The notes beneath the pieces are model-generated. The model searched no databases. It was not told where the DNA came from and saw only the letters and a list, made by a program, of their open reading frames with translations. Made by a program: the position numbers and the translations under genes. Shown one piece after another: positions 1 to 63,526 of a stretch of DNA of 64,000 bases. Position 1 is the first letter of the stretch, and the number at the start of each line of letters is the position of its first letter. This DNA is from Ginglymostoma cirratum (lineage: Eukaryota). Location of the stretch: assembly GCA_024137785.1 (NCBI GenBank), contig JAHRHZ010000139.1, positions 35,659,438 to 35,723,437 of the forward strand. The letters run 5' to 3'.

Positions 1-21
1 AAGGAGACTCAAAGACATGTT

Positions 22-1086
22 GGGTTTGTGGCAGAGTGGTTGTGTCCCTACCTCTGATCCAGGAGGCCTGAGTTTAAATCCCATCTACTCCAGTGGTGTG
101 TCATAACATCTCCGATACAGGTTGGTTAGGAAAGATAAAGCAGACCCACAGGCCTAGTGGTGCATAAATAGTGTTCCTGCCTCTGAGCCGGGAAACCCAG
201 GTTCAGGTCCCACCATCTCCAGAATGTGTAATAACTTCATAGAATTCCTACTGTGAAAACACATCGAGCCTGCACAAACCCACTGAAGAGAATCCCACCC
301 AGACTCACCACATTACCCTATCCCTGTAACCTCACATTTATCATGGCTCATCCACCTAGCCTGCACATCCCTGTACACTATGGACAACTTAGCATGATCA
401 ATCCACATAAGCTGCACATCTCTGGACTGTGGGAGGAAACTGGAGCATCTGGAAGAAATGCAGACATGAGGACAATGTACAGCCTTCACACAGACAGCCA
501 TCCAAGTGTATAATCGAGCCTGGGTCCCTGTACATCCCTTAACAGGCTGATTACGAAAATATAGTAAAGCAGCCCTAGTTTTGGTCGTGTGTGATGATAC
601 AGCTAGATATAAAATGATAAACAGACCTGGGACCTTCTGTCGTGCAGTGATAATGTCTTTATCTTTGGGCCAGGAAGGCCTGTGTTGAAGTTCCTCGTCC
701 TTCAGATGTAGTGTAATATCTCTGAACAGGTTAATTAGGAAAATGTGGATTGTGGAATTGAGAATTGAATGAGTAAAATGCAATGGTTGAAATTTTAAAT
801 TAAAAATGTATATCTGTGGGGCTGGGGGTGCTTTTACGGTGTCCCTACCTCTGAGCTAGGAGGTCTCGGTTCAAATGCCACCTACTTCAGGGTGTGTAAT
901 AACATCTCTGAACAGACTGATTTAGTTTTATAAGAAATGAAGCAGACCCAGAGGGTTCTTATGGAATAGTAGTAGCATCCCTGCCTCTGGAGCAAGAGGA
1001 CCTGGTTTAAGGCCCACCTACCCCATAAGATAATACCTCTGAACAGGTTGATTAGAAAATGTAAAAGAATTACAAAGCAGACCCAG
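22..1086 (+). repeat. Diverged tandem array of about five short tRNA-derived SINE-like units
   Basis: Recurrent unit gtggcNNagtggt..gtccctacctctgagcc..ggttca(a/g)..cccac..tgtgtaataacatctctgaacaggttgattag at ~23, ~150, ~630, ~820, ~952, separated by aagcagaccc-like linkers. A-box and B-box-like motifs present. Confidence 0.75.
238..540 (-). mobile_element. HE1/V-SINE-type tRNA-derived SINE inserted into array unit 2
   Basis: ccacctagcctgcacatccctgtacactatggacaacttagcatg..ctgcacatctctggactgtgggaggaaactggagca; same family as the copies at 42002, 48066 and 56878. Confidence 0.85.
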
Positions 1087-2003
1087 CCCTTTCCCAGTCT
1101 CCCTACTTCACCTTCACTTTTGATGGTTCACATTATCGGTAGGGCATTGCACTTAAATTTCCAATTGGCGACACGGGTGATTTACTGGTGGCAGCCAATA
1201 ATGTAAAAACAAAAGAAAAAATCATAGTGATTTGGTGGTGGGAAGGCTGTTTGGTTGTGTGTGATAATGCTTCTGAAAACTTTAAGATAAGCAGGCTCAG
1301 GGATGGATCTGCAGAAGTCTCTGTAACCTAAGCTCCCCATAAGTATTGGCTCTATTTTAGTGTTCAACTATAAACAATGTTCCTTTCCAGTCAGGCTTCC
1401 TGAGTTATAGTTTGGTAATCGATTCCAGCAAAATGTTTTGTCTTCTAGCCGAGTACCTTTTCCCTCACAACTTTCCTCTCGTACAATTTTACAAATTTCA
1501 CTCATTACCATCCTATCTCTCATGTTCCCTGGAGAAATTTTACAGTCCAATAGAATACAATACTAACATGACAGCTTTAAAGAATAAATCAAATATTTCT
1601 ACTTTATTCCAGGCATTAACATTTTTTACACGGTTACACTTTGTTTTAGAGGACGTTTTGTTTTTCCTCTAAAGTAACTCAATAAATTATGCTGCACTTT
1701 TTGTATCTCAAAATCGTCCCAAATTTTAAAAAAAAGTGTTGTTGCTGACATTGTTCCTTTAATATTTAATTTATTTCTCTTTAAAAGAAACAAATATTCC
1801 AAACTCATATGCACAGATATCATTGACACTGTGAATGAATGCATTTGTATTGTTTTCTGATTATTTAAATTTCATGTGACCATTTTCTTTAAATAATGTA
1901 AAATATGACTTCAATGAACCTTAATTTCTGGAGCCCAGGCTTTGAAATATTTGATAGTCAATATTTAATGTGTCTAAAAAATTTCTCCTCTTCTCAAACA
2001 CTT

Positions 2004-2815
2004 TGGCCCAGATTTTCCATTTGCCAGACCTTTGTTATTCCACTATAGTTAGGGTTGTTCAAGGAGACCTGGCAGAATGCCCAATGTAGCCGTTAATTCC
2101 TTTATGCCTGAAGCCCTCCAAAAGTTTCCTTAAAAATCAGAGACATCGAAAGGTTCTGATGAAATTAAGTAGAATTGTTATTTAAGGGAAGTTAAATGAT
2201 TAAATATATAATTTAAATCCTAAGCAGGTATTAATCAAAACTCATACTTCACACCCCCAAATACACTTTCCCCAGAAATCATATAGGACCCAGACGCCCC
2301 TGACCCAGGATCAACAGTCCCCATCCCCAGGACCTGATTCACCCTCTGGGGACCTGACACCCGCACCCTCATTCCCCCCATAACCTCGGTCAGATGAGAT
2401 ACCTCACCACACCCCTGCACTGCCGCCAATGCTGGACCTGACCCCACTTCTGAAAGCACCCAGCTACCCCTCCCCCCCAACCACCCCCACAAAGGGCAAC
2501 ACAGGACCTGATCCCCACCCTGCATACCATCACCCTGGTCTGCAAAACCAAAACACTCCCCAACGCCATTAGAGCTGACTCCAACAGCACTCTCCAGCCC
2601 CTTTCCAACACTGTTGTCAGACACCACTCCAATCTGACACTCCTGACAGTGGATATCCCAGCCCTACCCCCTCAGCTGGACAGGACGTGACCTGCAGCCC
2701 CTGCCCCCACCCTTAATGAATCCACCCCTCACACTGTACTGCCAGTACTGAACGCCCAAGATCAGACAACTGTCCTCCTGGCCCTACTCCCTTGAACCCT
2801 TTCCTCCAGCTCTAG
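2004..2815. mobile_element. Non-autonomous DNA transposon/MITE-like remnant
   Basis: Begins ggcccagattttccatttgcca, resembling the reverse complement of the terminus at 20632-20653. C-rich interior mirrors the G-rich interior of 19669-20653. Confidence 0.5.
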
Positions 2816-4607
2816 ACAAAGGTCATATGCTTTGCTTATTGTGAACAAGAGAAACATCCATCCCCTGTTACATTGCTGTTTGTATCAAACTCTTTGACAC
2901 TTACTTTCTCATATTATAGAACATATCTTCAGACAGTTTTCTTTCTAAATTACCCTTCCAATGTTTAAAGATGTCAAGCTGTTTTTTTTTCTAAAGTACC
3001 AATTCATGCAACTAAACATTGAACATGAACATATCCTATCATCCAGAATTAAATGTTCACCCATATGTTAAAGAATATTTGGAATTCACTCCAGCCAGAA
3101 AATGACAAGTCAATTTGAAACTCAATCTTAATAATTCCGAAATGAAACATTTATCTAAAACATTTTTTCTTAAATCAAACAAAAGTCAGAACAATTACTG
3201 CTTTTTATTAACAAGAGAGAGGAAATAAATTACATCTGTCTGACTCTTCTTTCTTCAATTGGCTTTCAAATGACGGTAATTTAAGAACTGAAGAAGAGCT
3301 GAATTTTCACAAGAAAACCTTTAACATTCTGACTCCAAACAAAAGTTACATAGTAACCTTTCACAGTCATTTGTGACTCCTAGAGAGTTGCAATGTTACA
3401 ACTGGAGAATCCTTTAATTAATGCGCATTTTACAGTCACTATCTTTTCTTCAATCTGGGACAGTTGTTACAACAGAACAAAATCCCAACACTAATTACTC
3501 CACATTGATACACAACTTAAGTTTATGTGTTATTAAATTGATGCAGGGAAACTCAATAATCACATCCGTATTTTCATATCTCCGTGGACTCCAGGAATTT
3601 GTATTCCTATAATGGGTTATAAACTCAAAGTGCAAATTGCGTCCTCAGATCACGAGCACTAAGGGGAGAAAAATGCAAAATGAAGCTTAAACCAGTTTAG
3701 AATTACTATCATTGTACCAATACATATTAAACAACATTTAACAAGTAAACTTTAAAACAGCATGCAAGACCTGGCCTTGAAGCATAAACATTGAGCTCCG
3801 TGATTTGCAGATACTCAAATAAATATTATTAAAATAGAAAAGGTTCATGTCCAAATAAAATACACCCACCAAGCTTCTCACATTCAGGCACAGGTTTCTT
3901 GTTTATGTTATTTTTAACAAAGCATCTTAAAGGTCACTGTTTGCCTTCCAATTTACTTTCTCACTTTCTATGAATCACTTTCTTTAAAACTGAAATTTTC
4001 TCTTTTGCGTCTCGACCTGAGTTATGGTTTGGTGGGAGTGAGGAGCACAGAATGTTTTGCTTCGTAGTCAGACACACAAGCAGCTGAAACAGGAACTAGC
4101 TTCCTCTAATCTCAGCAATCAGTATTACCTGTTACCTGTCTTCATAAATATCTGCTTCCCAGTGAGGTTAGTTCACTGCTTCTCTAACACAGCTTAGGTA
4201 TCACACAACTCCCGTGCAGCCTCGCATTTGTCTTTTCACTTACTGTAAACTTCTTGCCTGAACTGCTGTATCTCAATTAAAGTAGCTTCTTTATACAGAT
4301 TGGATGTACTTTGTGTTCCATTATTGGTACCGACTGACTCAACACTAAACGATGGACTTGTCTCTTTAAATCTTCCATCTCCTGATCTTCTTCCTGCAGT
4401 TTTCTATTTCCTGAGTCAGTCTGACGTCTTGAATGGCACATATTGAGGTAACACTTGACAAAATTATTCTTTTTTTTTCTCTTTCCTTTTTGCCTTTTTA
4501 TCCCACTGTTCCTTATGCTAGTCTGGAGCCCACGACAGATCCGTCTTCCTTAGTCAATTTGCTTAGGACCTTCTTATTTTTATCTGTCAAGAATTCAATG
4601 AATGACT

Positions 4608-7127: not shown

Positions 7128-7493
7128 GGGAGGTAATGGCCTAGTGGTATTATCGCTGGACTGTTAATCCAGAGACCCAGAAAATATTCTGAGGACCCGG
7201 GTTCAAATGTTGCCACAGCAGATGGAGGAATTTGAATGCAACAAAAAAAAAATCTGGAATTAAAAATCTAATGATGACCATGAATCCATTGCCAATTGTT
7301 GGGAAAAACCCATATGGTTCACTGATATACTTTAGGGAAGGAAACTGCCATCATTGCCAGGTCTGGCCTACATGTGACTCCAGACCCACAGCAATGTGGT
7401 TGACTCTTAACTGCCCTCTGGGCAATTAGGGGTGGGCAATAAATGCTGTCTAGCCAGTGATGCCCTCATCCCGTGAATGAATAAAGGAAAAAA
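7128..7493 (+). mobile_element. tRNA-derived SINE sharing both ends with the LINE at 27207-30390 (subfamily A)
   Basis: Head gggaggtaatggcctagtggtattat...ggttcaaat; body tttagggaaggaaactgcc...ccagacccacagcaatgtggttgactc; tail ggcaattaggggtgggcaataaatgctg...tgaatgaataaa. Confidence 0.85.
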
Positions 7494-7642
7494 ATCTGAC
7501 AGCTTTAGAAATGAACCAAGACACTACACAGCCTACTGGCATTTTCATGTCGTTAAGTTTGTGCTGCAATGTGTTATTTTGAATCGCTCTTTAAACAATA
7601 CATAAAAATGAAAACTGGAGGGGAGGGGAATATGCCACCAGC

Positions 7643-9799: not shown

Positions 9800-12700
9800 C
9801 TGAAAATGGTTCAGGCCTCTCAGATATTCTCAGAAATAATACCTGGACCACAAACTTCGGCATTTAGGCAAAGGCAGATTAAGAAGCTCAATGTGCAGCT
9901 TGAGGGATGGTGCAGATGGGAGGGGTTTAGATATTTTGAGACATTCGGATTACTTTGGGAAAGGGGAAGTTGTTCAGAAGAGATGGGCTTCACCTGAGCA
10001 CAAAAGGACCTAATCCTCTGGTTGAGAGAGTAAATAGTGTAGTAGGGGTGGATTTAAACTTGTAAGGCAGGGAAGTTGACTAATGGGTCTAGTTTTGGAA
10101 GTACCAGAGAGAGAAAAAGAGAGAAGATGAGGAACTGGGTAAAGGAACTGAGGGAAGGCTTGAGTGTTGATAGTGAACGACAAAATGGTCTCCTTCCAAT
10201 GGGCAGGGAAAAGATAAAGGCATGGTTAAATTGTGTGTATGTAAATACCCAGCATATAGTGAACAAAACGGGGGAACTGGAAACAGAAATTGGTCTCGGG
10301 GATATGACATAGTTTCATTGTCAGAAACATAGCTCAAGCCAGAGTAGGACTGAATACTAAATATCCCGGGTTATAAAGCTTTTCATAAAAATGGAGGCAG
10401 GTTAGCACTGTTGGTCAAACATTATATCATTGTCTTTGAATGAAATGCAATTCCAAAATTAGGATCAATATGGTTGGAAGTGAGAAACTGGAAGGGAGCA
10501 GTGACCTTGTTGAGTAGTTATTATAAACCTCCATGTAGTAGAGTGGAAGTAGAAGAGAGCATTTATACAAAGAGTATGAGAACAAGTAGGGATGTGATTG
10601 TTGGTGATTTCAATTACCCAAGTGAAGACTGGCAGAAAAATAGAATGTGGGGCATTGAAGGGGAGAAATTCTTACAATTTGTGCAGGGCAACTTTCTGGA
10701 ACAGTACATTTCCAGTCCTAACAGGGACAGAGCTGTGCTGCATTTGGCCCTAGGAAATGAGGCAGGCCAAGTGGAGAATGCCAGAGTTGGGGAGCATTTG
10801 GGAACTAGCAATCATAACATAATAGGATTCGATATTATATTTGAAAAAGCATAAAAATCAATCACTGACTAAGACTCCAGACTGGAATAGGGCAGATTTT
10901 AGAATTGGAGCAGACTGATTGGAAACATATTTTGGTGGATAAAAAAAGTGGATGAAAGAATGGGAAAATTTCAAAGCAGTACATGCTAGATACATATCCA
11001 TGGGAAATAAATGTGAAATAGTCAAAGCTAGAGTCCCTGGATGACAAAAGATATTGATGAGAAAATAAGGAAGGAAAAAGAAGCGTTTCATGCATATCGG
11101 AGTAAAATAATTGAAATCAGGAAGAGTATCTCAAATGCAGGACAGAGGCTAAGGCTGGAATGAGAAAGGCTAAAAGCAAGCATGAGGAAAGGATGGCAGG
11201 GTGTAGTAAAACAAATCATAAAGTATTTTCCAAACATTGTAATGGAAATTAAGATTAGCGAAGAATAGAGTGTGTCCAATAAAGAACCAACAGAGTAAGT
11301 TGCTCACTGAAGCAAAGGGTATGGTAGAGGTACTAAATGAGCACTTTGCTTCTGTCTTCACTTAGTTAGAAAATGATGACAATGGCCAAGTTGAAAATGT
11401 GTGTGTTGAGCAACTGATCAGGCTAATGATAGTGAAAGGAAGGGTGCTGGAAAGGCTGGCAGCACTGCAAGTAGAGAATTCAACAGGATCGATGGGATGC
11501 ATCCCAAATTGCTGAGATAGAAAAAGGAGCAAATTGCAAGTATTTGATAGAAATTTTCCAGGCCTCTCTGAACATAGGATTAGCCCGGGGTGGGGGGTGG
11601 GGGGGGGGGGGGGGGGGGAGGTCGGGGGGTGGTGGCTGGAGGATTGCAAATTTGACACCATTATTTAAGAAAGGGGCAAAGGATAGTCCAGGAAACTACA
11701 GACCTGTCAACTTGATATCAATAATGGGAAAACTGATGGAGGCCGTAATACAGAATAGTGTAAATATACACTTGCAAAAAATAAGCTGATAATTGACTGT
11801 CAACATAGCTTTCCCAAGGGCAGGCTATGTCTGACAAATTTGATTGAGTTCTTTGACGAGATGACACAAGCAGTGGATGATGCTAATGGTGTAGATGTTA
11901 TATATTTGAACTTCCAGAAAGCATTTGATATGGTGTTAAATGGCAGGTTGATTAGCAAATTCGAAATGTTTGGGATCAGCGGGTCCTTGGCAGCATGGAT
12001 TAGAAGTTAGGTAAAAGAATGGAAACAGTGGGTAGGTATAGATGGGCATTTCTCAGATTGGAGACAAGTTGAAAGTGGTGCTCCCCAGGGATTGGTGTTG
12101 GGAACCTTGCATTTTCTGATTTTTGTAAACAATTTACAGACAGATATTGAGGGCAATATCTCTAAATTTGCAGGTGATACTAAGCTAGGAGTAGTGAATT
12201 GTGAAGATGATGCTGAGCAACTTCAGAGAGACATTGACAAATTGGTCAAATGGGCAGACATCTGCATTTCAATGCAGAGAAATGAGATAATGCATTTAAG
12301 TAGAAGAAATGCTGAGAGACAATACAGGTTCAATGGTACAAATTTGATGGGAGTTCAGGAGCAGAGTTCACGTGCATAATTCTGTAAAAGTGGCCAGGCA
12401 AGTTGAAATAATTGTTAAGAAGGCTAATAGGAATCTTGGGTTTATAAAGAGAGGCATGGAGTATAAAAGCAAGGAAGTGTTGTGACACTTCTACAAATCA
12501 TTGGTCAGACCACATTTGAAGTATTGTGTTCACTTCCGGACATTTTATATAAAGAAGCATGTTAAAGCCCTAGGGAGTGTAAAAAGGAGATATAGTAGAA
12601 TAATACCAGGAATGAGGGATTTCAGATACAGAAAAAGATTAAGGAAATGGTGCTTATTCTCCCTGGAGAAGAGAAGATTAAGAAGTGACCTTATCGAGGT

Positions 12701-25589: not shown

Positions 25590-25962
25590 GTTTTTCATTC
25601 TTCTTTCAAGGGCTATGGGCTTCACTGACAAGGCCAGCATTAGTTCCCCTTTTCTAACTGTCCTTGAAGTGTGTGGCTTGTATTCAGGGTCAGCACATTA
25701 CTGTGGGTCTGGAGTTACAAGTAGGCAACACCAGATATGGTCAGCTGATTTCCTTCCCTGAAGGGCAACGTGAGTTAGATAAGCTTTCAAACAATGATTT
25801 GATGAAAGTTTCATGGTCACCATGACTGAGACAAGCTTTATAATTCCAGATTTATAGATTGAATTTAAGACCCACCAGCTGCCGTGAGGAAATTTGAATC
25901 CATGTCCCCAGAGCATTAAGTTGGGCTGCCAGTTTGCTGATGACATTACCAATAAGCCACCT
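25590..25962 (-). mobile_element. tRNA-derived SINE related to LINE 27207-30390 (subfamily B, more diverged)
   Basis: Minus strand ...ccagacccacagtaatgtg...caagccacacacttcaaggacagttag...aatgctggccttgtcagtgaagccc; head with ggattcaaatttcctcacggcagctggtgg. Confidence 0.7.
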
Positions 25963-26415
25963 TCTCTTCCTTTAGGCTGGTGACTACTATAGGGACTGTT
26001 TTCCCAAGTTCCAAGCAGGCAGATAACTAGAGGCAGAACAAAATAATGTACCAAAGGACCCTTAGTGCTACCATGCAGCACAAGGCTAGCCTTGAATATT
26101 CTCGACATTTGTGCTTTCAGAAATGTAATTATCCTACAATGATACTTCATTTACCTTTTCATTTCTCTGGAATTTTCTGCATCTATCATAAGTTCCTAAC
26201 ATCACCTCAAATGCATATTTGAATCTGTGAGTAACTGTACAAGTAGGCTGACATAATGGAGATCAGTTAATACACTACCTTCCCATCGTAATTAGCATCA
26301 CGTCTTAACTTTTTCAATCTGAATCACACAAGTAGATTAAAGTTAGCTCCAGTGCCTGCACAAACCATTATTAGCATACTAATGCAGTTTGATATTATCA
26401 AGGAAACACTTAGCC

Positions 26416-26875
26416 AGGAGGCAATGGCCAAGTGGTATTGTTTAATCTAAAGATCCAGATAATGTTCTGGGGACACAGGTTCAAATCCCATCACAACAGG
26501 TGGTGGAATTTAAATTTGATAAAGGAAATCTGGAATTAAGAGTCTAATAATAACCATGAATCCATAATTAGAAAATTCCCATCTGGTTCACTGCCACCCT
26601 TGAATCTAGTTTGTGTTTGCAGAAATGCAATTCTCTTATTATAATATTTCATTTACCTCTTAACTCCTCTGGTATTTTCTGCATCTATCACAAGTTCCTT
26701 ACATAACCCCCCCTTTAGGCAAAGGAACTGCCATTCTTACCTGATCTGATCTACATGTGACTCCAGATCCACAGCAATGCGGTTGACTCTTAAATGCTCT
26801 CTGGACAATTAAGGATGAGCAAATAAATTCTGTCTCAGCCAGTGACACCCGCACCCCATGAATGAATTAAAAAAA
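26416..26875 (+). mobile_element. Subfamily A SINE interrupted by a ~110 bp local duplication
   Basis: Head aggaggcaatggccaagtggtatt and tail acaattaaggatgagcaaataaa..atgaatgaattaaaa match 7128-7493; foreign insert at ~26598-26708. Confidence 0.8.
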
Positions 26876-27206
26876 CTGACATTAATTGAGTGACCAATTT
26901 TATTTTAAATAACAAAAATAAATTTCATTCTCACTGGACTAGTAAGAATTATTTTCTTTTTCCCTTGTCAAATGAATGGAACTACTGGCTCAGGCTAAAT
27001 GATATCCTGCGACAGGTTTCTGCTTATTCTGGTCTTTTACTTTATTTCAAGGTCTTTAATCTAATTCCTGAAAATATTACAGCATTGTAGAAATTTGAAA
27101 GCTTTTTTTAATGATTTAAGCATAATTTTTGGATGCAAAATTTAAAACGTGGACTGTTGATCTTAAATGGATTTCAAAGCGTCCAGTCTTTCTAGCAGTC
27201 CCAACC

Positions 27207-30200
27207 GGAGAGGCGATGTCCTAGTGATATTAACATTGACTATTAATCTAGAAACTCAGCTAATATTTGAAGGACCTGGGTTTGAGTCTTGCCGTGGCAG
27301 ATGGTGGAATGTGAATTCAATTTTTAAAAATCTGCGATTAAGAATCAACTGATGACCAAGAAACCATTATCAATTGTTGGAAAATAAAGCCCTGGTTCAC
27401 TAATACCATTTAGGGAAGGAAATCTGCTATCGTCATCTGGTTTGGCCTACATCTGACTCCAGATCCACATGCCATGTGGTTGATTCTCACTGGCCTAGCA
27501 AGCCATTCAGTTTTATCAATCACTACAAAGTCTCCATCTAGCGACCGGAAAAGACAACGGCAGAAACAGTCCTGTCGACCCTGCAGAGTCCTCCTCTCTA
27601 ACGTCTGGGACCCAGTGGTAAAATTGAGCGAGCTGTCTCACAAACTAGTCAAGCAACAGCCTGATGCGGTCATACTCATGAAATCATACCTGACAGATAA
27701 TGTCTCAGACACCACCATCACCATCCCTGGTAATGCCCTGTCCCACCGGCAGGACAGACCCAGCAGAGGTGCAGCACAATGGTATATGGTCGGGAGGGAG
27801 TTGCCTCAATATTTCCAGTCCCCTGTGAAGCCTCATTGCTTCAGGTTAAACATGGACAAGGAAACCTCTTACTGATTACCATGGACTGTCTCCTCCAGGT
27901 TGAACAACACTTGGAGGAAGCACTGAGGAAGTCAAGGGCACAAAATGTACTCTGGGTGGGGGATTTCAATGTCCACCATGAAGAGCGGCTTGGCAGCAGT
28001 ACTACTGACCGAGCTGGTCAGTGCTAAAATACATAGCCGTTAGACTGAGTCTTCAGCAGATTGTGAGGGAACCAGCAAGAGGGAAAAACTTATTTGATCT
28101 CATCCTTATCAATCTGTTAGCTGCAGATGCATTTGTCCATGACAGTACCAGTAACAGTGACCACCACACAGTCCTTGTGGGGATGAATTTCCACTTTCTA
28201 ATTGAGAATGACCTCTATCATGTTGTGTGGCACTATTAAGGTGCTGAATGGGACAGATTTTGAATAGATCTAGCAACTCAAAACTGGGTATCCATGAGGC
28301 ACTATAGGCCATCAACAGCAGCAGAATTGTACTCCAGCACAATCTGTAACCTCATGGTCTGGCATATCCTCCACTCAAGCATTACCATCAAGCCATGAAG
28401 TTCAACAGAGAGTGCATCAGCGCATGCCAGAAGCAGCACCAGGCATACCTGAAAATGAGGTGTCAACCTGGTAAAGTCACCAAACAGGGCTATTGCACGC
28501 CAAACAGCATAAACAGCAAGTGATAGACAGAGCTAAGTGATCGCACAACCAACAGATTGAATCTGAGTTCTGCAGTCCTGCCACATCCAGTCGTGAATGG
28601 TGGTAGACAAGTAAATAACTCACTGCAGGAGAAGCCTCTACAAAAATCCCCATCCTCAATGATGGAAGAGCCCAGCACATCAGTGCAAACGAAAGGGCTG
28701 AAGCATTCGCAGAAATCTTCAGCCAGATTTGCCGAGTGGATGATCCATCTCAGCCTCCTCCGGCGGTCCCCAGTATCACAGATACCAGTCTTCAGCCAAT
28801 TCCATTCATTCCATGAGATATTAAGAATCAGTTGGAGGCACAGGATACTGCAAAGGCTACAGGCCCTGACAACATTCCGGCAATAGTACTGAAGACTTGT
28901 GCTCGAGAACTTGCACCCCCCCCCCCCCACCACCGATCCAGTGCAGTTACGACACTGACATCTACCCGACCATGTGAAAAATTGCCCAAGTATGTCCCGT
29001 ACATAAAAAGTAGGACAAATCCAACCTAGCCAATTACCACCCCATCAGTCTCCTCTCGATCATCAGTAAAGTGATGGAAGGTGTCATCAATAATGCTGTC
29101 AAGCAGCACGTATTCAGCAATAACCTGCTCAGTGATGCCCATTTTGGGTTCCACCAGGGCCACTCAGCTCCTGACCTCATTACAGCCTTGGTTCAAACAT
29201 GGACAAAAGAGCTCAATTCCAGAGGTGAGGTGAGAGTGACAGCCCTTGACATCCAGGCTGCATTCGACCAAGAGTGACATCAGGTAGAGCGAGCAAAATT
29301 TGAATCAATAGGTATAAGATGGCAAATTCTGTGGTGGTTGGAATCATATTTGGCAAATAAGAAGATGTCTGTGGTTGTTGGAGGTCACTCATCTCAGCTC
29401 CAAGCCATCTCTGCAAGAGTTCTTCAGGGTAGTGACATAGCCGTAACCATCTTCAGCTGCTTCATCAATAACCTTCCCCCTGTCATAAGGTCAGAAGTGG
29501 GGATGTTCACTGACAATGTTCAGCACCATTCACAACTCCTCAGATACTGAAGCAGTCCATGTTCACATGCAACAAGATCTGGACAATATCCAGGCTTGGG
29601 CTGACAAGTGGCAAGTAACATTCCCCCTGCACAAATGCCTAGCTATGACCATCACCAATAAGAGACAATCTAACCACTGCCCCTTGACAATCAGTGGTGG
29701 TATAATCACTGAAATCCCCCCACAGTCAACATCCTGGGGGTTACCATTGACCAGAAACTCAAGTGGACTCACCACATAAAGAAGTGGCTACTAAAGCAGG
29801 TAAGAGCCTAGGAATACTGCAGCGAGTAACTCACCCCCGAACCCCCTCCCACCACCAGAGCCTATCCGCCATCCACAAGGCACAATCAGGAGTGTGATGG
29901 AATACTCCCCACTTGCTTGGATGGGTACAGCTCCAACAACACTCAAGATACTTAACACCATCCAGGACAAAGCAGCCCACTTGATTGGCACTGCATCCAT
30001 AGCATCAACTCCCTCCAGAAACGGTGCTCAGTAGCAGCAGTTTGTATTATCTGCAAGATGCACTGCAGAAATTCACCAAAGATCCTCAAACAGCACCTTC
30101 CAAACCCATGACCACTACCATCTAGAAGGACGAGGAATGCCACCAATTTCAAGTTCCCCTCCAAACCTCTCATCGTCCTGTCTTGGAAATATATCACTGT

Positions 30201-30390
30201 TCTTTCATTGTTACTGGGTCAAAATCCTTGAATTCCCTCCCTAATGCCATTGTGGGTCAACTGACAGCAGGTGTACTGCAGCAGTTTCTGAAAGCAGCTC
30301 ACCACCACCTTCTCAAAGGCAACTAGGGATGGGCAATAAATGCTGGCCCAGCCAGTGACGCCACATCCACCAAAATGATAACAAAAAATA
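27207..30390 (+). mobile_element. CR1/L2-group LINE with tRNA-derived 5' head, no ORF1, decayed APE-RT ORF
   Basis: 5' ~290 bp matches SINE 7128-7410; APE (NVWDPVVKLSELSHKLVKQQPDAVIL, WVGDFNVHH, SDHHTVLV); RT (KATGPDNIP, ALDIQAAFD, VLQGS, QQDLDNIQAWADKWQVTF); 3' tail ggcaactagggatgggcaataaatgctggcccagccagtgacgcc. Confidence 0.9.
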
Positions 30391-32574: not shown

Positions 32575-34030
32575 AATCCAAATCAAATTGAGATGAAGTG
32601 AGAGCCATTGCTGTTGATATCTAGGCAGCATTTAACAAAGCTTGGCACAGTGGGAATTGGGGGAAACTCTCCAAAGGTTGGAATCATACATAGATTAAAG
32701 GAAAATGGAGGTCAATCATCTCAGCCCTAGTACACAGAATTCTTACAGTGCTGAAAGAGGTCACTTGGTCCATCAAGTCCGCACAGACCTTCTGAAGAGC
32801 ATCCAACCCTGACGCAGCCTCCTACCCTATCCCTGTAACTCCACATTTACCATAGCTAGCCCTCCTAACCTGCACAACTCTGGACACTGCAGGTCAATTT
32901 AGCACGGCCAAATCATGTACCCTGCAAATCTTTGGACTGTAGGAGGAAACTGGTGCACCCGGGGAAAACCCAGACACGGAGAGAGCATGCAAATTCCACA
33001 CAGACGGTCACCCGAGGCTGGAATCGAACCCTGGGTCAGAAGCAGCAGTACTAGCCACTCAGCCACCATGTCGTCCATGACATTACCGAGGAATTCTTCA
33101 TGCTAATGAACTGAACCCTACTACCTTTCATTGCTTCTTCAATGGCCGTTCCTCCATCTTAAGGTCAGAACTGGGGATGTTTGATGATGATTACACAATC
33201 TTCAGTACCATTCATGATTCCTCAGATATTAAAGCTGCCATATGCAGAACAACATTCAGGCTCAGGCTGACAAGTAGCTAGTAATATTCATGCAACGCAA
33301 GTGCTAGTCAATGACCATCTCCACAAGAGAAAATCTAACTATCTCCCCTTGGCCAGGCACATTAGTCCCATCACTGTATCCTCCACTATCAAAATCCAGG
33401 AGAATACCTTATACCAGAAATCAAACTGGATTAGCCATACAAATACTGTGGCTACAAGAGCTGGTCGGAGGATTGGAAATCTGCAGTGTGTAACTCATCT
33501 AACTCCCCAAGGCCACTAACCATAAGGCACACTTCAGAAATGCAATACTCTCCAATTGCCTAAACTCAGAAATCTTAAACAACATTCAAATAGCTTGGAA
33601 ACATCCAGGATAAAGCAGCCCACTTGACTGGTGCTCCATCTTTCACTCCCTCCATCACTGAAGCACAGTGGAATTATTTTGTACCATCTGTAAGGTGCAT
33701 TACAGCAACTTGTCAAGTCTTGTTCGAAAGCACCTTCTAAAACCGTGACCATTAGCACCTCAGAGGACATGGGCAGAAGATACATAGGAACATCACATCA
33801 GCAAGTTCTTCTGTAAGCCACAGGTGACACTGATGCAGGACTATACCCTTGTTCCTTCAACATTGCTGGACTGAATCCTGGATCCTTTCTAACTGTACTG
33901 TGGGTCCACTTACATGACATGGGCAACAGCGGGCCAAGAAGACAACTTACCAACACTTTCCCAAAGGCCATTAGGGATGGGCATCAAATACTGATCTAGT
34001 CAGTGACACCCATATTTCTGAAAGAAATAA
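32575..34030 (+). mobile_element. Older, more decayed 3' portion of the same LINE family, interrupted by an HE1-type SINE
   Basis: aggtcagaactggggatgtttgatgatgattacacaat, catccaggataaagcagcccacttgactgg and tail ggccattagggatgggcatcaaatactg parallel 29200-30390. Confidence 0.75.
32735..33070 (-). mobile_element. HE1/V-SINE-type SINE nested in a LINE
   Basis: tttggactgtaggaggaaactggtgcacccggggaaaaccc..ggaatcgaaccctgg..agcagcagtactagccactcagccacc. Confidence 0.85.
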
Positions 34031-37385: not shown

Positions 37386-39088
37386 TATTTCTCCCCTGTG
37401 TTTACCGTGGACAAAGACATGAAAACTTGGGAACTTGGGGAAGTTAGTGGCAATATCTTGGGGACAGTCCATTTCATAGTAGATGAGGCGTTGGAAGTAT
37501 TAGAATGTATGAAGGTGGATTAATCTCCTGGTCCTGACCAGATATATCCAAGAACCCTGAAAGAGACTAGAGTAGAAACTGTGGAGCCCTGGCTGATATA
37601 TTTGCATCATCATTAGCCACGGGTGAGGTTCTGGAAGACTGGAGGGTTTCAAATGTTGCGTCCTTATTCAAGAAGGGCTGCAAAGAAAATCCTGGGAATT
37701 ATAGGCCAGTAAGTCTAACATCTGCAGTAAGTGAGTTACTTGAGACGATTCTGAGGGATAAGATGTACATGCATTTGGAAATACAGCGTTTGATTAACAG
37801 TAGTCAGCATGGCTTCGTGCATGCGAGATCATGCCTCACAAATTTGTTAGAGTTCATTAATGAAGTGACCAGGAAGGTTGATGAGGGCAGGGGTAGACGT
37901 AGCCTACATGGATTTCAATATGGCCTTTGATAAGGTTCCACATGGTAGGCTGCTCTGGAAGGTTAGATCGCATGGAATCCAGGGAAAGCTGGCAAATTAG
38001 ATACACAATTGACTTGATAGTAGGAAGCAGAGGGTAATACTCAAAAGATGCTTGTCTGACTGGAGGCCTGTGACTAGAGGTGTGCCTCAGGGGTAGGTGC
38101 TGGGCCCAGTGCTGTTTGTGATCTATGTCAATGATTTGGATGAGAATGTACAAGACATGATTAGTAAGTTTGCGGATGACACTAAAATAGGCGGTATCAT
38201 GGACAGTGAGGAAGGTTATCAGTAATTGCAGCAGGATATTGATCAGCTGGGGAAGTGGATCAAGAAATGGCAAATACAATTTAAGATAGATGAGTGTGAG
38301 GTGTTGCATTTTGGAAAGTCAGATCAAGGTAGGAGTTTCATGGTGAACGGTAGGGCCTTAAGGAGTGTAGCAGAACAAAGGGACCTTGGAGTTCAGGTAC
38401 ACAGTTCACTGAAAGTGGAGTCACAGGTTGACAGGGCAGTGAAGAAGGCTTTTGGCACACTGGCTTTCATCAGTCGGGGCTCTGAGTATAGAAGTTGGGA
38501 AGTTATGTTGCTGTTGGATAGGACTTTGGTGAGGTTGCACTTGGAGTATTACATTTAGTTTTGGTCACCTTGCTATAAGAAGGATGCTATTAAATTGGAA
38601 AGAATGCAGAGGAGATTTACAAGAATGTTGCCAGGACTCAAGGGACTGAGTTACAGGGAGAGGCTGGATAAGCTAGGACATTTTTCTTTAGAGTGTAGGA
38701 GATCGAAGGGGGATCTTACAGAAGTGTATAACATCATGAGAGGCATGGATAGGGTGAATACATCATTCTTTTTCCCAGGGTTGGGGAATTGAGGGGAATC
38801 AGTTTAAGGTACGAGGGGAAAGAATACATGGGAACCTGAGGGACAACCTTTTTACACAGAGGGTGGTACGCATATGGAATGAGCTGCCAGCGGAAGTGGT
38901 TGAGGCAGGTACATTATCAACATTTAAAAGGCATTTGGACCAATAAATGGATAGGTAATGTTTAGAAGGATATGGGCCAAGTGCAGAGAAATGTTGTTAG
39001 CGCGGATGGACATTTTGGTTGGTATGGACTAGTTTGGGCTGAATGGCCTGTCTCTGTGCTGTGTGAGTCTATGACTCCATGACTCTAT
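37386..39088 (+). mobile_element. CR1-type (HER1-like) LINE, 5'-truncated RT region with 3' tail
   Basis: PGNYRPVSLTS, GVPQG*VLGP, SKFADDTKIG, QQDIDQLGKWIKKWQIQF, FSLECRRSKGDLTEVY; ends tggcctgtctctgtgctg...ctatgactccatgactctat. Confidence 0.92.
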
Positions 39089-43889: not shown

Positions 43890-46350
43890 ATACAAAGAAC
43901 AACAAATAAAGAACTAAAAATACAGAACAAAAGAACAAGGAATGCAGAACATAGGAACAGACCCTTCGGCCCACCAACTACGCCAACACATAATGACTTT
44001 CAAAACTAAAAACCGCATGCCTCTATGCAGTCCATATCCCTCTATTCCCTGCCTATTCATCTACCCATCAAAATGCCTCTTAAACATAGTTATTATATCC
44101 ATCTCCTCTGGCAGCACATTCCAAACACTTACCACTATGCATAAAAAACACTTGCCTCATACACCTCCCTTAAACTTACCTCCTTTTAATTCAAACCCTT
44201 AGCAATTGACATTTCTACACTGGGAAAAAGACTCTGACTATCCATTCTATTCATGCCTCTCCTAATTTTGAAAAATTATCAGGTTGCCCCTCATCCTCCA
44301 AGTGAAAACAAATCAAGTTCGTCCAATCCATCCTCATAGCTAACATCTTCCAAAACAGGCAACATCCAGGTGACCTGTTTCTGTACCCTTTCCAAAGTCT
44401 CCACATCTTTCTGGTAGTGTGGCAACCAGAACTGTGTATAATATTCCAAACATGGCCGAACTAAAGTTCTATACAGCTGCTACATGACTTTCCAATTTTT
44501 ATACTCTGTGCCCTGACTGATGAAGGCAAGCATGCTACATATCTTCTTGACCACCTTATCTACTTGTGGTGCTACTTTCAGGGAGCTGTGGACCTGTGCA
44601 CCTAGACCCTTCTGTATGTTGATGTTACTAAGGGTTCTGCTATTTACTGTATATTTCCAAAATGCATCACCTCACATTAGTCTGGATTAAACTCCACCTG
44701 TCGTTTATCCGCTGAAGTCTCTAGTTTATCTGCATTCCGCTGTATCCTTTGGTAATCCTCCTCACTATCAGTAGCTCTCCCAATTTTCTTATCATCTGCA
44801 ATCTCACTAAGCAGGCCAACTATATTCTTCTCCAAATCATTTACATCTATTACAAACAGCAACGGTCCCAGCACTGATCCTTGTGGAACATCACTGGTCA
44901 CAGATCTCCAGTCTGAAAAACACCTTTCAACCTCTTCACTCTGCCTTCTATGACTATGCCAGTTCTGTGACCATCTTACCAATTTACTGTGGATCCCATG
45001 ACTTTACCTTTTGTATCAATCAGTCAAAGGCCTTGCTATAGTCCATATGGACTGAAGAGGATACAGAGATTTTGTACAAGGTCCCAATAATTTCTTCACC
45101 CACCTCCCTCAGTATTCTACGATGGATCCCATCAGGACCTAGGGATTGTCTACCTTAAAGCTATTTAAAACATGCTTCCTCCCTTCTTAAATATACATGC
45201 TCAGAATATCAACATAGCCCTCCTGAGTCTCACCATCAACCATGACTTTCTCCTTTGTGAATATTGTTGCAAGGTATTCTTTAAGGGCCTCACCCACTTC
45301 CTGCAGCTCCACACATAAATTCCATCCTTTGTCCCTGAGTGGACGTACTCATTCCCTAGCCACTCTCTTACTTCTTATGTATGGTTAAAATGTCTTTGGA
45401 TTTTCCTTAATCCGGTTTGCCAAAGACATTTCACGCCCCTTTTAGCCTACCTAATTGCTTGCTTGAGTTCTTAGATGCTTCTTTGTATTCTTCAAGGGCT
45501 CTGTCTGTCTTCAGTTTCCTAAAACTTATGTATGTCTCCTTTTTCTTTATGACTAAGCTGTCAATTTCTCTTTCAGTTTCCGAATCATACCATCCTTATC
45601 TTTCATTTTCACAGGAACATGCTGGTCCTAAAGTCTAGTCAACTGGCCTTTAAAAGATTCCCACATATCAGATGTGGATTTACCCTCAAACAGCCACCTC
45701 CGATCTACATTCCCAGTTCCTGCCTAATATTGTGGTAGTTAGCCTTCCCCCAATTTAGTTCTTTCACTACTCTTACCCTTATCTATAACTAATTTAAAAT
45801 TTACAGAATCACGGTCACTGTTCCTGAAATGCTCCCTCACTGAAACTTTGACCACTTTGCCAGGCTCATTCCCCAATACCAGGTCTAGTATGGCCCCTTC
45901 CCTAGTTGGATTTTTTATTGTTTCAAAAAAAACCATCCTGGACACACTTAATAGATTCTGCCCCATCCAAGCCCCTGGCACTCAGTGAGTCCCAGTCAAT
46001 ATAGGGGAAGTTAAAAACTACCCATCTCAACAACCCTCTTGTTTTCACATTTTTTCCATAATCTGTCCACATATCTATTGTTCTATCACCTGCTACGTAC
46101 TGGGAGGCCTGTAGAACAATCTCATCAAAGTGATTGTACCCTTCCTATTCCTGAACTGCACCCATATGGCCTTGCTGGATGAGCCCTCCAAGGGGTCCTC
46201 CCTCAATACTGCTATGATATCCTCCCTAAACAATAATGCAACTCCCCCAAACTCTTTTACATCCCTCTCTATCATGCCTGAAACATCTAAATCCCAGAAC
46301 ATAAAGCTGCCAATTTTGTCCCCCTCTCAGCTGTAATATCTACAACATCA
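43890..46350 (-). mobile_element. CR1-type LINE (APE + RT, internally deleted, decayed)
   Basis: Minus ORFs GGVALLFREDI..RLFYRPPST, PTREGAILDLVLGNEPG, SDVPQGSVLGPLLFVIDVNDL..IADDKKIG; degenerate ttcttt-rich 3' tail at ~43890-43950. Confidence 0.9.
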
Positions 46351-57188: not shown

Positions 57189-57989
57189 GCTTTGTCTCTT
57201 TCCCAGGGCATAGAACTGAACATTCCAAGTGCTTTTGCATGATAACTATCTCCCAGGATGAAAACTTCTAAGTGTATTCAATATCTTCGATACCTTTTAC
57301 CTTTTAATATATTTTTGTTCCACCCCCTCCCACACCACAATTGATTTGGAACACAATACTAAATTTTAAAACCATGCTCACTTCTGTAACCTACTTTTAA
57401 CATGTTACTTCTCACCCGTGCACTGGATTCTATGATTTCCTGCATCCCACCCCCAACCAGACCCTTGGTTAGCAAGCAGAGGAAATCTACTTTTCTATTC
57501 GGAGAATATAACTCTTCGTCTGTTTGGCAACCCATATTTCTTTTAAATTTCTTAATATTTTAGGAGTTTTTGGGCATGTTTTCAGTTCCTAATGCTGAGG
57601 CACATTGAATTTCTGGCCTCAATTGTTTTTGACACTGAGTGTGCTCAATGAGCTGTAGACAGTTCAGTGCACCATCAACCCTTCAAGAACTACAAATTGG
57701 ATTTAAAGTGATCGAACCATTTAAAAGTGGCCACACGTGGGAGTTAAAATACATTTCCTGCATTTGTGAAAACCTCATATCAAAAGCAAATAGCTGTCCA
57801 ATCCCACTGGATGGCAAAACAGATGTAGGAATGGAGCATACAGACCACTGATTGCATTGAGGGGGGAATTGCTCCTAACTCTCCTGTTTAATTCAAGGAA
57901 AACAGAGATTCTCTATTGCACAAAGTAGAGAGGAAGATTGCTCTGTTTGACACTTCAAGGTAGCCTACCTCAACGACAGCACTGTAGCA

Positions 57990-58390
57990 TTTTTTTTCAT
58001 CATTCATGAGTGTTGCTGACTGGGCCAATATTTATGGCCTATTCCTAACTGTCCTTGAACTGAATGGCTTGCTGGTAACTTCAGAAGACAGTTAAGAGTT
58101 AACTACACACTTATGTGCATCTGAAGTTACACATAGGGTGACCAAGTAACAGGTAAAGATGGCAGATTTGCTGTCCTACTGGGCATTGGTCAACCAGATG
58201 GGTTTTTGCAGCAACAGCCAACAAAGGCTAAATGATCACAATAGACTAACATTTTCTTAAAGCATCAGTTGTTTTTTATTGAATCAAATTTCACCATCTG
58301 CCATGGTGGGAGTTGAGCTCATGTCCCACAATGTTAACCTGGCGTTCTGGATCAATAGTCCAGTGACATTGCAACTACATTCACACCTCC
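57990..58390 (-). mobile_element. Subfamily B SINE related to LINE 27207-30390
   Basis: Minus strand ...aactcttaactgtcttctgaagttaccagcaagccattcagttcaaggacagttaggaataggccataaatattggcccagtcagc; head aatgtcactggactattgatccaga..catggcagatggtgaaatttga. Confidence 0.7.
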
Positions 58391-59770
58391 CTTGCTAAGC
58401 AGGAGATGGCAGGTCGGCTCACTAGTTGTTGAAATGCTTGAAAGTCTTAGGAATAGAGGTCAGCCATAATCGTATTAAAGGGTGGAGCAGGCTTGAAGGG
58501 CTGAATTGCCTACTTCTGCTCCTAGTTATTCTTATGCTCTTATCAACTTCCTTCTTGCGTATGAATGCCTCTCCTGTTAATCTGCTGTGCTATATATACA
58601 CTCATGTAAAAGTTGAGTTTGAGAGAGCAATATTTAGCCAAAATGCTGTGGATGAACTTATATTTGTATGAAATCTACACATTCCCATCATCTCAGTAGC
58701 TGTTTATGACAGTACTGCAGCTAGTTGCAGATTTGCCAAGTTGGAGACTGTTCCTGCCAATCATGAACCCCATCAAAACAAAAATAGTAAAATGGAGCCA
58801 GAAAGCATCTTCATTATTCTCTGCAGACATGAGAAGCTGAGTACTTTGAATGAGTACTTTTGCACCAGATATGCTCTACTGCAATGGTTAGTGGGTGTTA
58901 AGTCAAAAGAGTTTGGATTTTTTGACTGTATGTTCGGGGCTGACCTCTACATGAGTTACCTGAAAATTTAAGAAACTTTTGGCAAAAAAAACTGTGTTGA
59001 ATTATCCATGGGATTGACCAACACTTGAGTACGTATGGTACATTAATGCTTCACATAGGAATTAGGAGCAAAAATACCCCATTTGGACCTGCCATTCAAT
59101 AAGATCATGCTTGATCTGTTGATGTCTTGAATTCCACATTCCCACCTATTCTCAATAACCATTGATTCCACTACCAAACAAAAACAAAAATCTATCTACG
59201 TATGCCTTAAGATATCCAATGACTTCACTTCCATTTGTGGTGTCTAATTTGTGGTAACAAATATCATCATCAGCCCACAGCCCTTACCACCAGCTATGGA
59301 TTCAGCTGCTGAGGAACAGAAGCTTGAGGAGGAGCAAAGAAGAGGCAACCACAACAGCCTCTTTCTGAATGGGCAGTCCATGAAGAACTGCTGGAATAGT
59401 TGGGGTGGAAGGATGAATGATCTCTTCTTGACAGAGGACACCAGAGGAGCCATAGTCTACTGCCACTTGCCCAGGTCACCATCTCAGTAATGCTACTAAC
59501 TTACAGGAGGGCAGATTGCTGTTATATCCTGCAGGTCTTCTGCACAACCAATCAACAGAAACACGGGTGCAGTGCAGATTTTTACAGCAACAAGTGAGCC
59601 TTGCTGACCTCAGCGTGAGCTAGCACCTGCAGGTATTATGTGGACACGACTTGCACTGCAAATGAAGCATGATTGGAGCCATGGTTAGGTCAACCAGTAT
59701 TGCTGGTGTTACGGAGGAGGAATAGTCAAACCCCTCTGATAGTTAAACCAAAACACAAGTCCCAATCTGC

Positions 59771-63179: not shown

Positions 63180-63526
63180 GGGGAGGCAATGGCCCAGTGG
63201 TATCATTGCTGGACTGTTAATCCAAAGACCCAGGAAAAGTTCTGGGGATCCAGGTTTGAATCCTGCCATGGCAAATGGTTAATTAACAGTGTAATGATGA
63301 CCATGAATCTATCGCCAATTGTCAGGGAAAAAATAAACCATATGGTTCACTAATGTCATTTAGGGAAGGAAACTGCCATCATTACTTGGTCTGGCCTACA
63401 TGTGACTCCAGACCCACAGCAATGTGGTTGACTCTCAATTGCCCTCTGGGTAATTAGGGATGGGTAATAAATACTGGCCTAGCCAGTCATGCCCTCATTC
63501 CATGAATGAATAAATTTTTAAAAAAT
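63180..63526 (+). mobile_element. Subfamily A SINE (tRNA head + LINE tail)
   Basis: Closely similar to 7128-7493: gggaggcaatggcccagtggtatc...ctcaattgccctctgggtaattagggatgggtaataaatactggcc...tgaatgaataaa. Confidence 0.88.

Follow-up and report, generated by a model that had tools for sequence, protein, structure and literature searches.

A tRNA-Ser-like head on an elasmobranch Zenon LINE, a possible Pol III unit, and SINEs that are likely its internal deletions

In the textbook division, LINEs are coding elements transcribed by Pol II and SINEs are non-coding elements transcribed by Pol III. The closest described LINE with a tRNA-like sequence is RTE-1_DAn (Kojima, 2018; PMC5786205); together with its relatives it holds a sequence matching SINE2 heads, as does the family described here, but these elements belong to the RTE clade and, in the part of that paper covered here, are mentioned only as a source of matches to be removed, with no details of position, promoter use, or T-runs. 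No second paper naming RTE-1_DAn was found in the literature searched. The covered part of the same paper also describes short elements that consist of the 5′ end of a LINE plus its 3′ end (RIME, NARTc, Bov-A, Bov-tA, and CoeSINE4), reported there from no LINE groups other than RTE, Ingi, Vingi, and R2; in these the tRNA head is added second. The SINEs of this study share that bipartite structure, but their parent is in the CR1 group and is already tRNA-headed. A small-RNA-derived Pol III promoter in a retrotransposon other than a SINE has been described for the TRIMp3 elements Cassandra, Helenus, and Ajax (PMC10886601), which resemble Zenon in this respect but, as characterized in the sections covered, are of LTR type, short, and non-coding.

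Among chondrichthyan SINEs, HE1 (V-SINE), SacSINE1 (Deu), and the CmiSINEs (CORE) carry a tRNA head like the SINEs reported below (PMC5499810; PMC4824008); going by the available descriptions, the CmiSINEs are set apart by Ala heads and L2 tails, and SacSINE1 by an L2 tail. Bivalve SINEs combine a tRNA head with a CR1-Zenon tail (PMC11481361). As far as these descriptions extend, the chondrichthyan and bivalve SINEs share only the tail with their partner LINE, whereas the Zenon SINEs share both ends. Zenon elements themselves were described from five elasmobranchs by Stuart et al. (2026; PMC13343379) as RhiTyp_Zenon-1 (3293 nt), CarCar_Zenon-1, ScyCan_Zenon-1, SquAca_Zenon-1/2/3, and HypSab_Zenon-1, each of which lacks ORF1, ends in a poly-A tail, and, according to that paper, is absent from repeat databases; “CR1-Zenon like” elements have also been described in the whale shark (10.1101/443036). 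Neither the family nor the absence of ORF1 from it is therefore new. The tRNA head is printed in the published consensuses but, as far as seen, apparently was not recognized: the word “tRNA” has no match in the main text and supplement of Stuart et al. (2026), and the portions covered here do not remark on the head, the depletion of T-runs, or SINE derivatives. The literature searched, which is incomplete in coverage, held no account of a tRNA-headed Zenon or of an autonomous LINE made by Pol III. What is new here, as far as seen, is the tRNA promoter head and the SINE derivatives of this published family.

The window analyzed is a 64-kb stretch (64,000 nucleotides) of the Ginglymostoma cirratum genome. 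Its plus strand holds a decayed full-length Zenon LINE copy at 27207..30390, 84% identical to nt 5–3290 of the family majority sequence (87% over aligned columns); the majority, ~3.29 kb long, was derived from 21 sequences (20 fetched copies and the window copy). The copy begins with a tRNA-Ser-like head (27207..27300, with box A at 27217–27227 and box B at 27279–27289), followed by a body common to both SINE types described below (27301..27489, family nt ~95–293) and a leader preceding the endonuclease (27490..27590, family nt 294–429), of which the older SINE type retains nt 294–318. A broken single APE-RT frame occupies 27591..30326, with the endonuclease from 27591, the RT at ~29014–29780, and a stop at ~30324; the 3′ tail in common with the SINEs (30313..30390) has an AATAAA-like word and an A-rich run at its end. 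All of these parts are on the plus strand.

Endonuclease motif I, at 27591, lies ~100 bp past the end of the body at 27489, which bears out an earlier model-made reading of the bare sequence (the sequence-only reading hereafter) in that no space is left for ORF1. The corresponding gap is ~137 nt in the family and is shorter in the window copy because 13 nt and 29 nt were lost there; the 29-nt leader deletion (~27534) takes out the family’s conserved out-of-frame ATG. Pfam recognized RVT_1 in the window copy (E 5e-9), with the endonuclease below cut-off. The window copy is a dead element, with many frameshifts and stops, decay in both boxes A and B, and four acquired TTTT runs; the 21 full-length copies are 80–94% identical to their own majority, and it is among the more decayed of them. 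ARAGORN predicted no tRNAs across the 64-kb window, and Rfam gave chance matches only (E 1.8 and 7.5) for 26300–27700. The body at 27301..27489 had no match in 80 metagenome LINE loci. A search for target-site duplications gave only three short, chance-level matches in 21 LINE and 31 SINE copies.

The window contains further LINE sequence. An old, 5′-truncated fragment of the same lineage lies at 33132..34020 (+), 66% identical to the main copy, and its matches in the genome give a majority 97% like the Zenon family. A different short repeat, which we take to resemble the reverse strand of an HE1-type V-SINE, is inserted into this old fragment at 32757–33075. Other LINE fragments are found at 37580–38735 (+), 11544–12346 (+), and 44653–45003 (−); the segment 37600–38300 is part of an abundant CR1-type family that was used as a control for T-runs.

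The window element is a member of elasmobranch Zenon, a family of the CR1 group that is already catalogued. The sequence-only reading could not tell whether the family was catalogued; it has been published as elasmobranch Zenon (Stuart et al., 2026; PMC13343379), and a missing ORF1 is the normal state of all Zenon elements. The likeness extends to length (~3.29 kb against 3293 nt), the single APE-RT frame, the missing ORF1, the A-tail, and near-identity over the first 400 nt, the only interval compared, where the majority of 21 copies differs from the published RhiTyp_Zenon-1 at ~8 positions as read by eye (~98% identity). LINE copies with an intact 3′ end have short A-rich tails, and two CR1 families from the same genome end otherwise. 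With those two CR1 families the Zenon family shares 26–28% protein identity and no nucleotide match. Canonical CR1, with its esterase ORF1 and microsatellite tail, was ruled out on the absence of ORF1 and this low protein identity. The nearest proteins were unnamed single-ORF proteins of ~940 aa (30–43% identity), placed in an unrooted tree without named Zenon references. Since Zenon lacks ORF1 in all phyla, loss of ORF1 predates the head.

The genome searched comprises 4.36 Gb. Zenon and its SINEs make up 6.5% of 373,608 unmasked bases in 60 arbitrary 10-kb stretches, a figure that masking may bias; the same sample held 4 clear SINEs and 2 head-bearing LINEs. Four random-sample loci (L174, L180, L198, and L216) contain long open frames that presumably resemble Penelope-type elements.

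Copies of the LINE were selected by an endonuclease-only query (27600–28000), since a junction-directed search favors the junction. From the 4314 candidates returned, 40 were scored and 30 loci retained, or 29 without the window’s own copy. In 19 of these 29 copies the sequence reaches nt 1–11 of the head, where 5′ ends pile up; four break inside the head or body, and six stop after nt 293 (one of them with N upstream). No alternative 5′ end was found in the 29 copies, and the upstream kilobase of the eight that stop after nt 100 held no common sequence, except for one weak opposite-strand pair. The head-LINE junction is therefore not a chance adjacency. Neither a junction confined to this locus nor copies with a conventional ORF1 and another 5′ UTR, the two outcomes that the sequence-only reading had set against its own proposal, appeared in this sample. 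All seven published elasmobranch Zenon consensuses (five species) start with the head, whereas two hagfish consensuses and one from a coelacanth are without it and have TTTT runs, in each case as read by eye over the first 400 nt. Immediately upstream of two head-bearing copies (L052 and L079) lies the 3′ portion of a further family member.

Because full-length copies are cDNA of an RNA, the position at which their 5′ ends pile up, 10 nt before box A, is probably where the RNA starts, and we infer that transcription of the LINE would begin at the same place as that of the SINEs. As to how the head arose, the sequence-only reading had offered, as its second option, that a 5′-truncated LINE captured a SINE head. 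This does not hold at this locus; the LINE could nonetheless have first gained its head in that way, from an ancient SINE, before sharks and rays diverged.

In the family majority, consensus box A (nt 11–21) and box B (nt 74–84) are both perfect and lie 52 nt apart. The best tRNA match of the head is Ser(GCT), with z ~6.5–7 among 27 distinct tRNA sequences from the same genome (a sample without tRNA-Leu), and the head’s variable arm is 10 nt longer than that of tRNA-Ser(GCT). The young SINE majority folds anticodon-like, variable-arm-like, and T-arm-like hairpins, and the LINE folds the latter two; no acceptor stem forms in the head as read from the sequence. In the published spiny dogfish consensus, the variable-arm-like stem has changed on both sides (by eye). 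No box A/B pattern was found in metagenome LINE loci with upstream flank, where relaxed ARAGORN searches returned noise.

The SINEs in the window fall into two types that differ in the junction between the two LINE ends. The younger type, on the plus strand at 7128..7494, 26416..26875 (interrupted by an insert at ~26593–26711), and 63180..63514, joins LINE nt 1–293 to nt 3220–end. The older type, on the minus strand at 57988..58391 and, more decayed, at 25590..25960 (both with approximate ends), joins nt 1–318 to nt 3215–end. Within the window, LINE positions 27210–27496 match the SINE sequence at 7130–7417 (76%, E 3e-49) and at 63282–63443 (77%), and the LINE tail at 30318–30362 matches the SINE tails at 7421–7464 and 63449–63493. 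The young SINE majority (354 nt, 31 copies with a mean non-CpG identity of 94%, from 9304 candidates) has LINE nt 1–293 directly joined to nt 3220–3291, and at both junctions (293/3220 and 318/3215) the two parts abut with 0–1 nt between them. These elements fit SINE2 in having a tRNA head, a body, a LINE-derived tail, no coding frame, no TTTT, and many copies. Of 30 loci read by eye, 13 were of the older type, 11 of the young type, 2 were LINEs, and 4 were unclear. A third junction, from ~nt 324 to 3187, occurs in a single copy (L215:9841-9936), and the young SINE junction appears as loose ends or joints in three of four contig-level runs examined (organisms A, D, and E).

Much of this anatomy had been anticipated: the sequence-only reading had equated the first ~290 bp of the LINE with the head and body of the SINEs at 7128, 26416, and 63180 and its last ~70 bp with their tail, so that a SINE would equal the two LINE ends, and the alignments confirm it, the copy at 26416 being of the same type but split. 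Since the parent LINE already bears a tRNA head, one deletion gives a complete SINE, and since the two junctions differ, the deletion likely happened twice. The SINEs are likely internal-deletion products of the LINE, the direction from LINE to SINE being suggested by the sequence comparisons, and two separate deletions from an evolving LINE are the simplest reading. This agrees with the first option of the sequence-only reading, an autonomous tRNA-headed LINE yielding bipartite SINEs. Taken jointly, the family identity, the head, and the SINE anatomy can be held with high confidence.

Four T are the minimal Pol III terminator in vertebrates, and TTT alone is no known terminator. More generally, Pol III stops at oligo(T), and five T are required in S. 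pombe, according to the part of the source covered (PMC4982682). The sense strand of the family majority (3280 nt) contains three runs of at least three T against 21.9 expected from base composition (ratio 0.14; Poisson P 6e-7); a Markov-1 model gives a mean of 12.3, and 0 of 400 simulations were as low. Runs of A, C, and G are normal, and TTT is the most depleted of the 64 trinucleotides. The depletion extends to Phe codons, where TTT:TTC is 1:16 against 61:105 in other NNY codons (Fisher P 0.013). TTTT, for which the sequence-only reading had proposed a check, is absent (0 seen against 4.4 expected), but this absence alone is not significant (P 0.17 and 0.07 under codon-aware nulls, 0.16 under Markov-1), so the depletion signal rests on TTT.

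Two CR1 majorities from the same genome, treated in the same way, have 48 TTT runs against 33.0 expected and 45 against 30.5, and Phe TTT:TTC counts of 30:10 and 28:9. For single copies, the median T-run ratio is 0.45 in Zenon (0.17–0.72, n = 21) and 1.32 and 1.43 in the two CR1 families (n = 25 each). A further control used 80 metagenome LINE loci, of which the 45 with a match of at least 1.5 kb were kept and 35 dropped as shorter; the ratios of the 45 loci, which are 24–39% identical and of unproven clade membership, center on a median of 1.12 and go no lower than 0.62. In one metagenome LINE (L336), which lacks its 5′ end, TTTT is absent from 2.3 kb where 5.6 runs would be expected, with TTT at a normal level. 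Among the LINEs tested, T-run depletion is specific to the Zenon family. It comes from one lineage; two intended extra samples (window positions 33120–33780 and L175) proved to be the same family and do not serve as independent controls. Its presence in this family and absence from CR1 and the 45 distant LINEs favor Pol III transcription.

A single frame stays open for 977 codons from nt 295 of the family majority, which answers the question of an intact APE-RT ORF and leaves no room for ORF1. The first in-frame Met of this long frame is codon 171; its lead-in is Arg-rich, whereas in most distant relatives a Met directly precedes the endonuclease. Near nt 347, a conserved ATG lies outside the long frame in most copies (19 of 27 at the majority spacing, against 1 in frame); it opens a 35-codon frame (family nt 347–452) that runs across the endonuclease start in a different register. 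No conserved slippery site for a −1 frameshift was found by eye in the five species. The Phe content of the protein, 1.7% against 2.1–4.4% in 18 full-length relatives, is at the low end and not decisive. Non-standard initiation seems to be needed under any model.

The best explanation, and one we consider on balance probable from these sequence patterns, is that a Zenon LINE with a tRNA-Ser-like head would be transcribed at full length by Pol III, with the SINEs as its internal deletions. Pol III would start ~10 nt upstream of box A and read through 3.3 kb from which oligo(T) terminators may have been selected out, even at Phe codons, to terminate at the first T-run in the flank, as for SINEs. 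Translation of the uncapped RNA would have to do without a start AUG in frame, the RT would recognize the 3′ tail, and any deletion keeping both LINE ends would give a complete SINE in one step, likely at least twice. Whether Pol III is the main polymerase of the LINE appears to us evenly balanced. The fullest form of the proposal, in which shark and ray Zenon would be an autonomous coding LINE with a 3.3-kb Pol III RNA translated without cap or in-frame AUG, a design kept since before the shark-ray split and yielding SINEs by single deletions, is put forward more tentatively still. Available sections of one study report that in human cells ORF1p is dispensable for the retrotransposition of RNAs made by Pol III but required by Alu made by Pol II (PMC2666806); this would fit an ORF1-less parent LINE without proving Pol III use. 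Translation is the weak point of the Pol III model, since an RNA without a cap would have to yield the protein. Kojima (2024; PMC10886601), in the part covered, holds that autonomous elements are driven to use Pol II because Pol III is poorly processive.

It is conceivable, though we think it unlikely, that Zenon is a Pol II LINE with a relic head, in which the head and body of a SINE were captured as a 5′ UTR and an internal Pol II promoter drives transcription; the boxes would then serve only the SINE derivatives or factor binding, and T-runs would have been lost because U-rich signals for processing or splicing are avoided. According to the sections covered of two sources, Pol II transcribes LINEs in general (PMC10886601; PMC5786205), a protein has to be made, and the AATAAA ahead of the A-tail is also compatible with Pol II; the missing TTTT, not significant by itself, adds to this side. 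Against such a relic stand the boxes and hairpins preserved in the published LINE lineages of five species and the lack of T-run depletion in CR1 from the same genome and in the 45 distant LINEs. The first 350 nt also hold ten ATGs, none of which can start the APE-RT frame, which speaks against ordinary cap scanning.

A division of labor would meet both the avoidance of T-runs and the translation problem: Pol III would make the RNA that is copied, and the APE-RT would come from Pol II read-through of host genes, making the element a giant SINE with its own helper frame. The 39% of whale-shark Zenon that lies in introns, a figure from the part of that work covered here (10.1101/443036), is in keeping with this. 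Without cis preference, however, the frame should decay, yet 977 codons are open in the majority, and we regard this arrangement as improbable.

The order of events could also be reversed, with the SINEs as independent families from which the 5′ end of the LINE was acquired, or by which it was converted, again and again. Exchange of modules among SINEs is well known (PMC5499810, in the part covered), and a three-way comparison of head and body, from which locus L237, wrongly taken for the older type, had been removed, has 9 columns in which the two SINE types agree and the LINE differs. In 33 columns the young SINE agrees with the LINE and not with the old SINE, a count to which an 8-nt gap contributes and which carries noise because the old SINE was represented by just 10 copies. 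The old SINE carries a longer form also found in the published dogfish LINE (by eye). A SINE-first origin would require the capture point to hit the border of body and tail exactly, twice; the LINE retains nt 294–345, missing from the young SINE, in all five species with published consensuses; and the third, single junction shows that deletions do occur. We judge it quite improbable. Least likely of all, and with very little probability in our view, is that the tRNA-like fold is a processing signal at which RNase P frees the 5′ end from a host co-transcript, like the HDV-like ribozymes of R2, RTE, and Ingi: 5′ self-cleavage is used by ORF1-less LINE clades (PMC5786205, in the part covered), the copies have sharp 5′ ends, and the three hairpins fold, but the acceptor stem does not form, the loss of T-runs is left unexplained, and the 5′ end sits where SINE transcription starts.

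If Pol III does transcribe the Zenon LINE at full length, an abundant vertebrate LINE running on a tRNA promoter would break the division between Pol II LINEs and Pol III SINEs. It would provide a natural multi-kilobase Pol III mRNA in which to study how translation proceeds without a cap and how processive Pol III is, and it would directly test the idea that the need for ORF1p depends on the polymerase. Internal deletion of an already tRNA-headed LINE would let a SINE arise in a single step, a route for which the literature searched holds no earlier case in the CR1 group, and shark repeat annotation must treat Zenon SINEs and LINE 5′ ends as one family.
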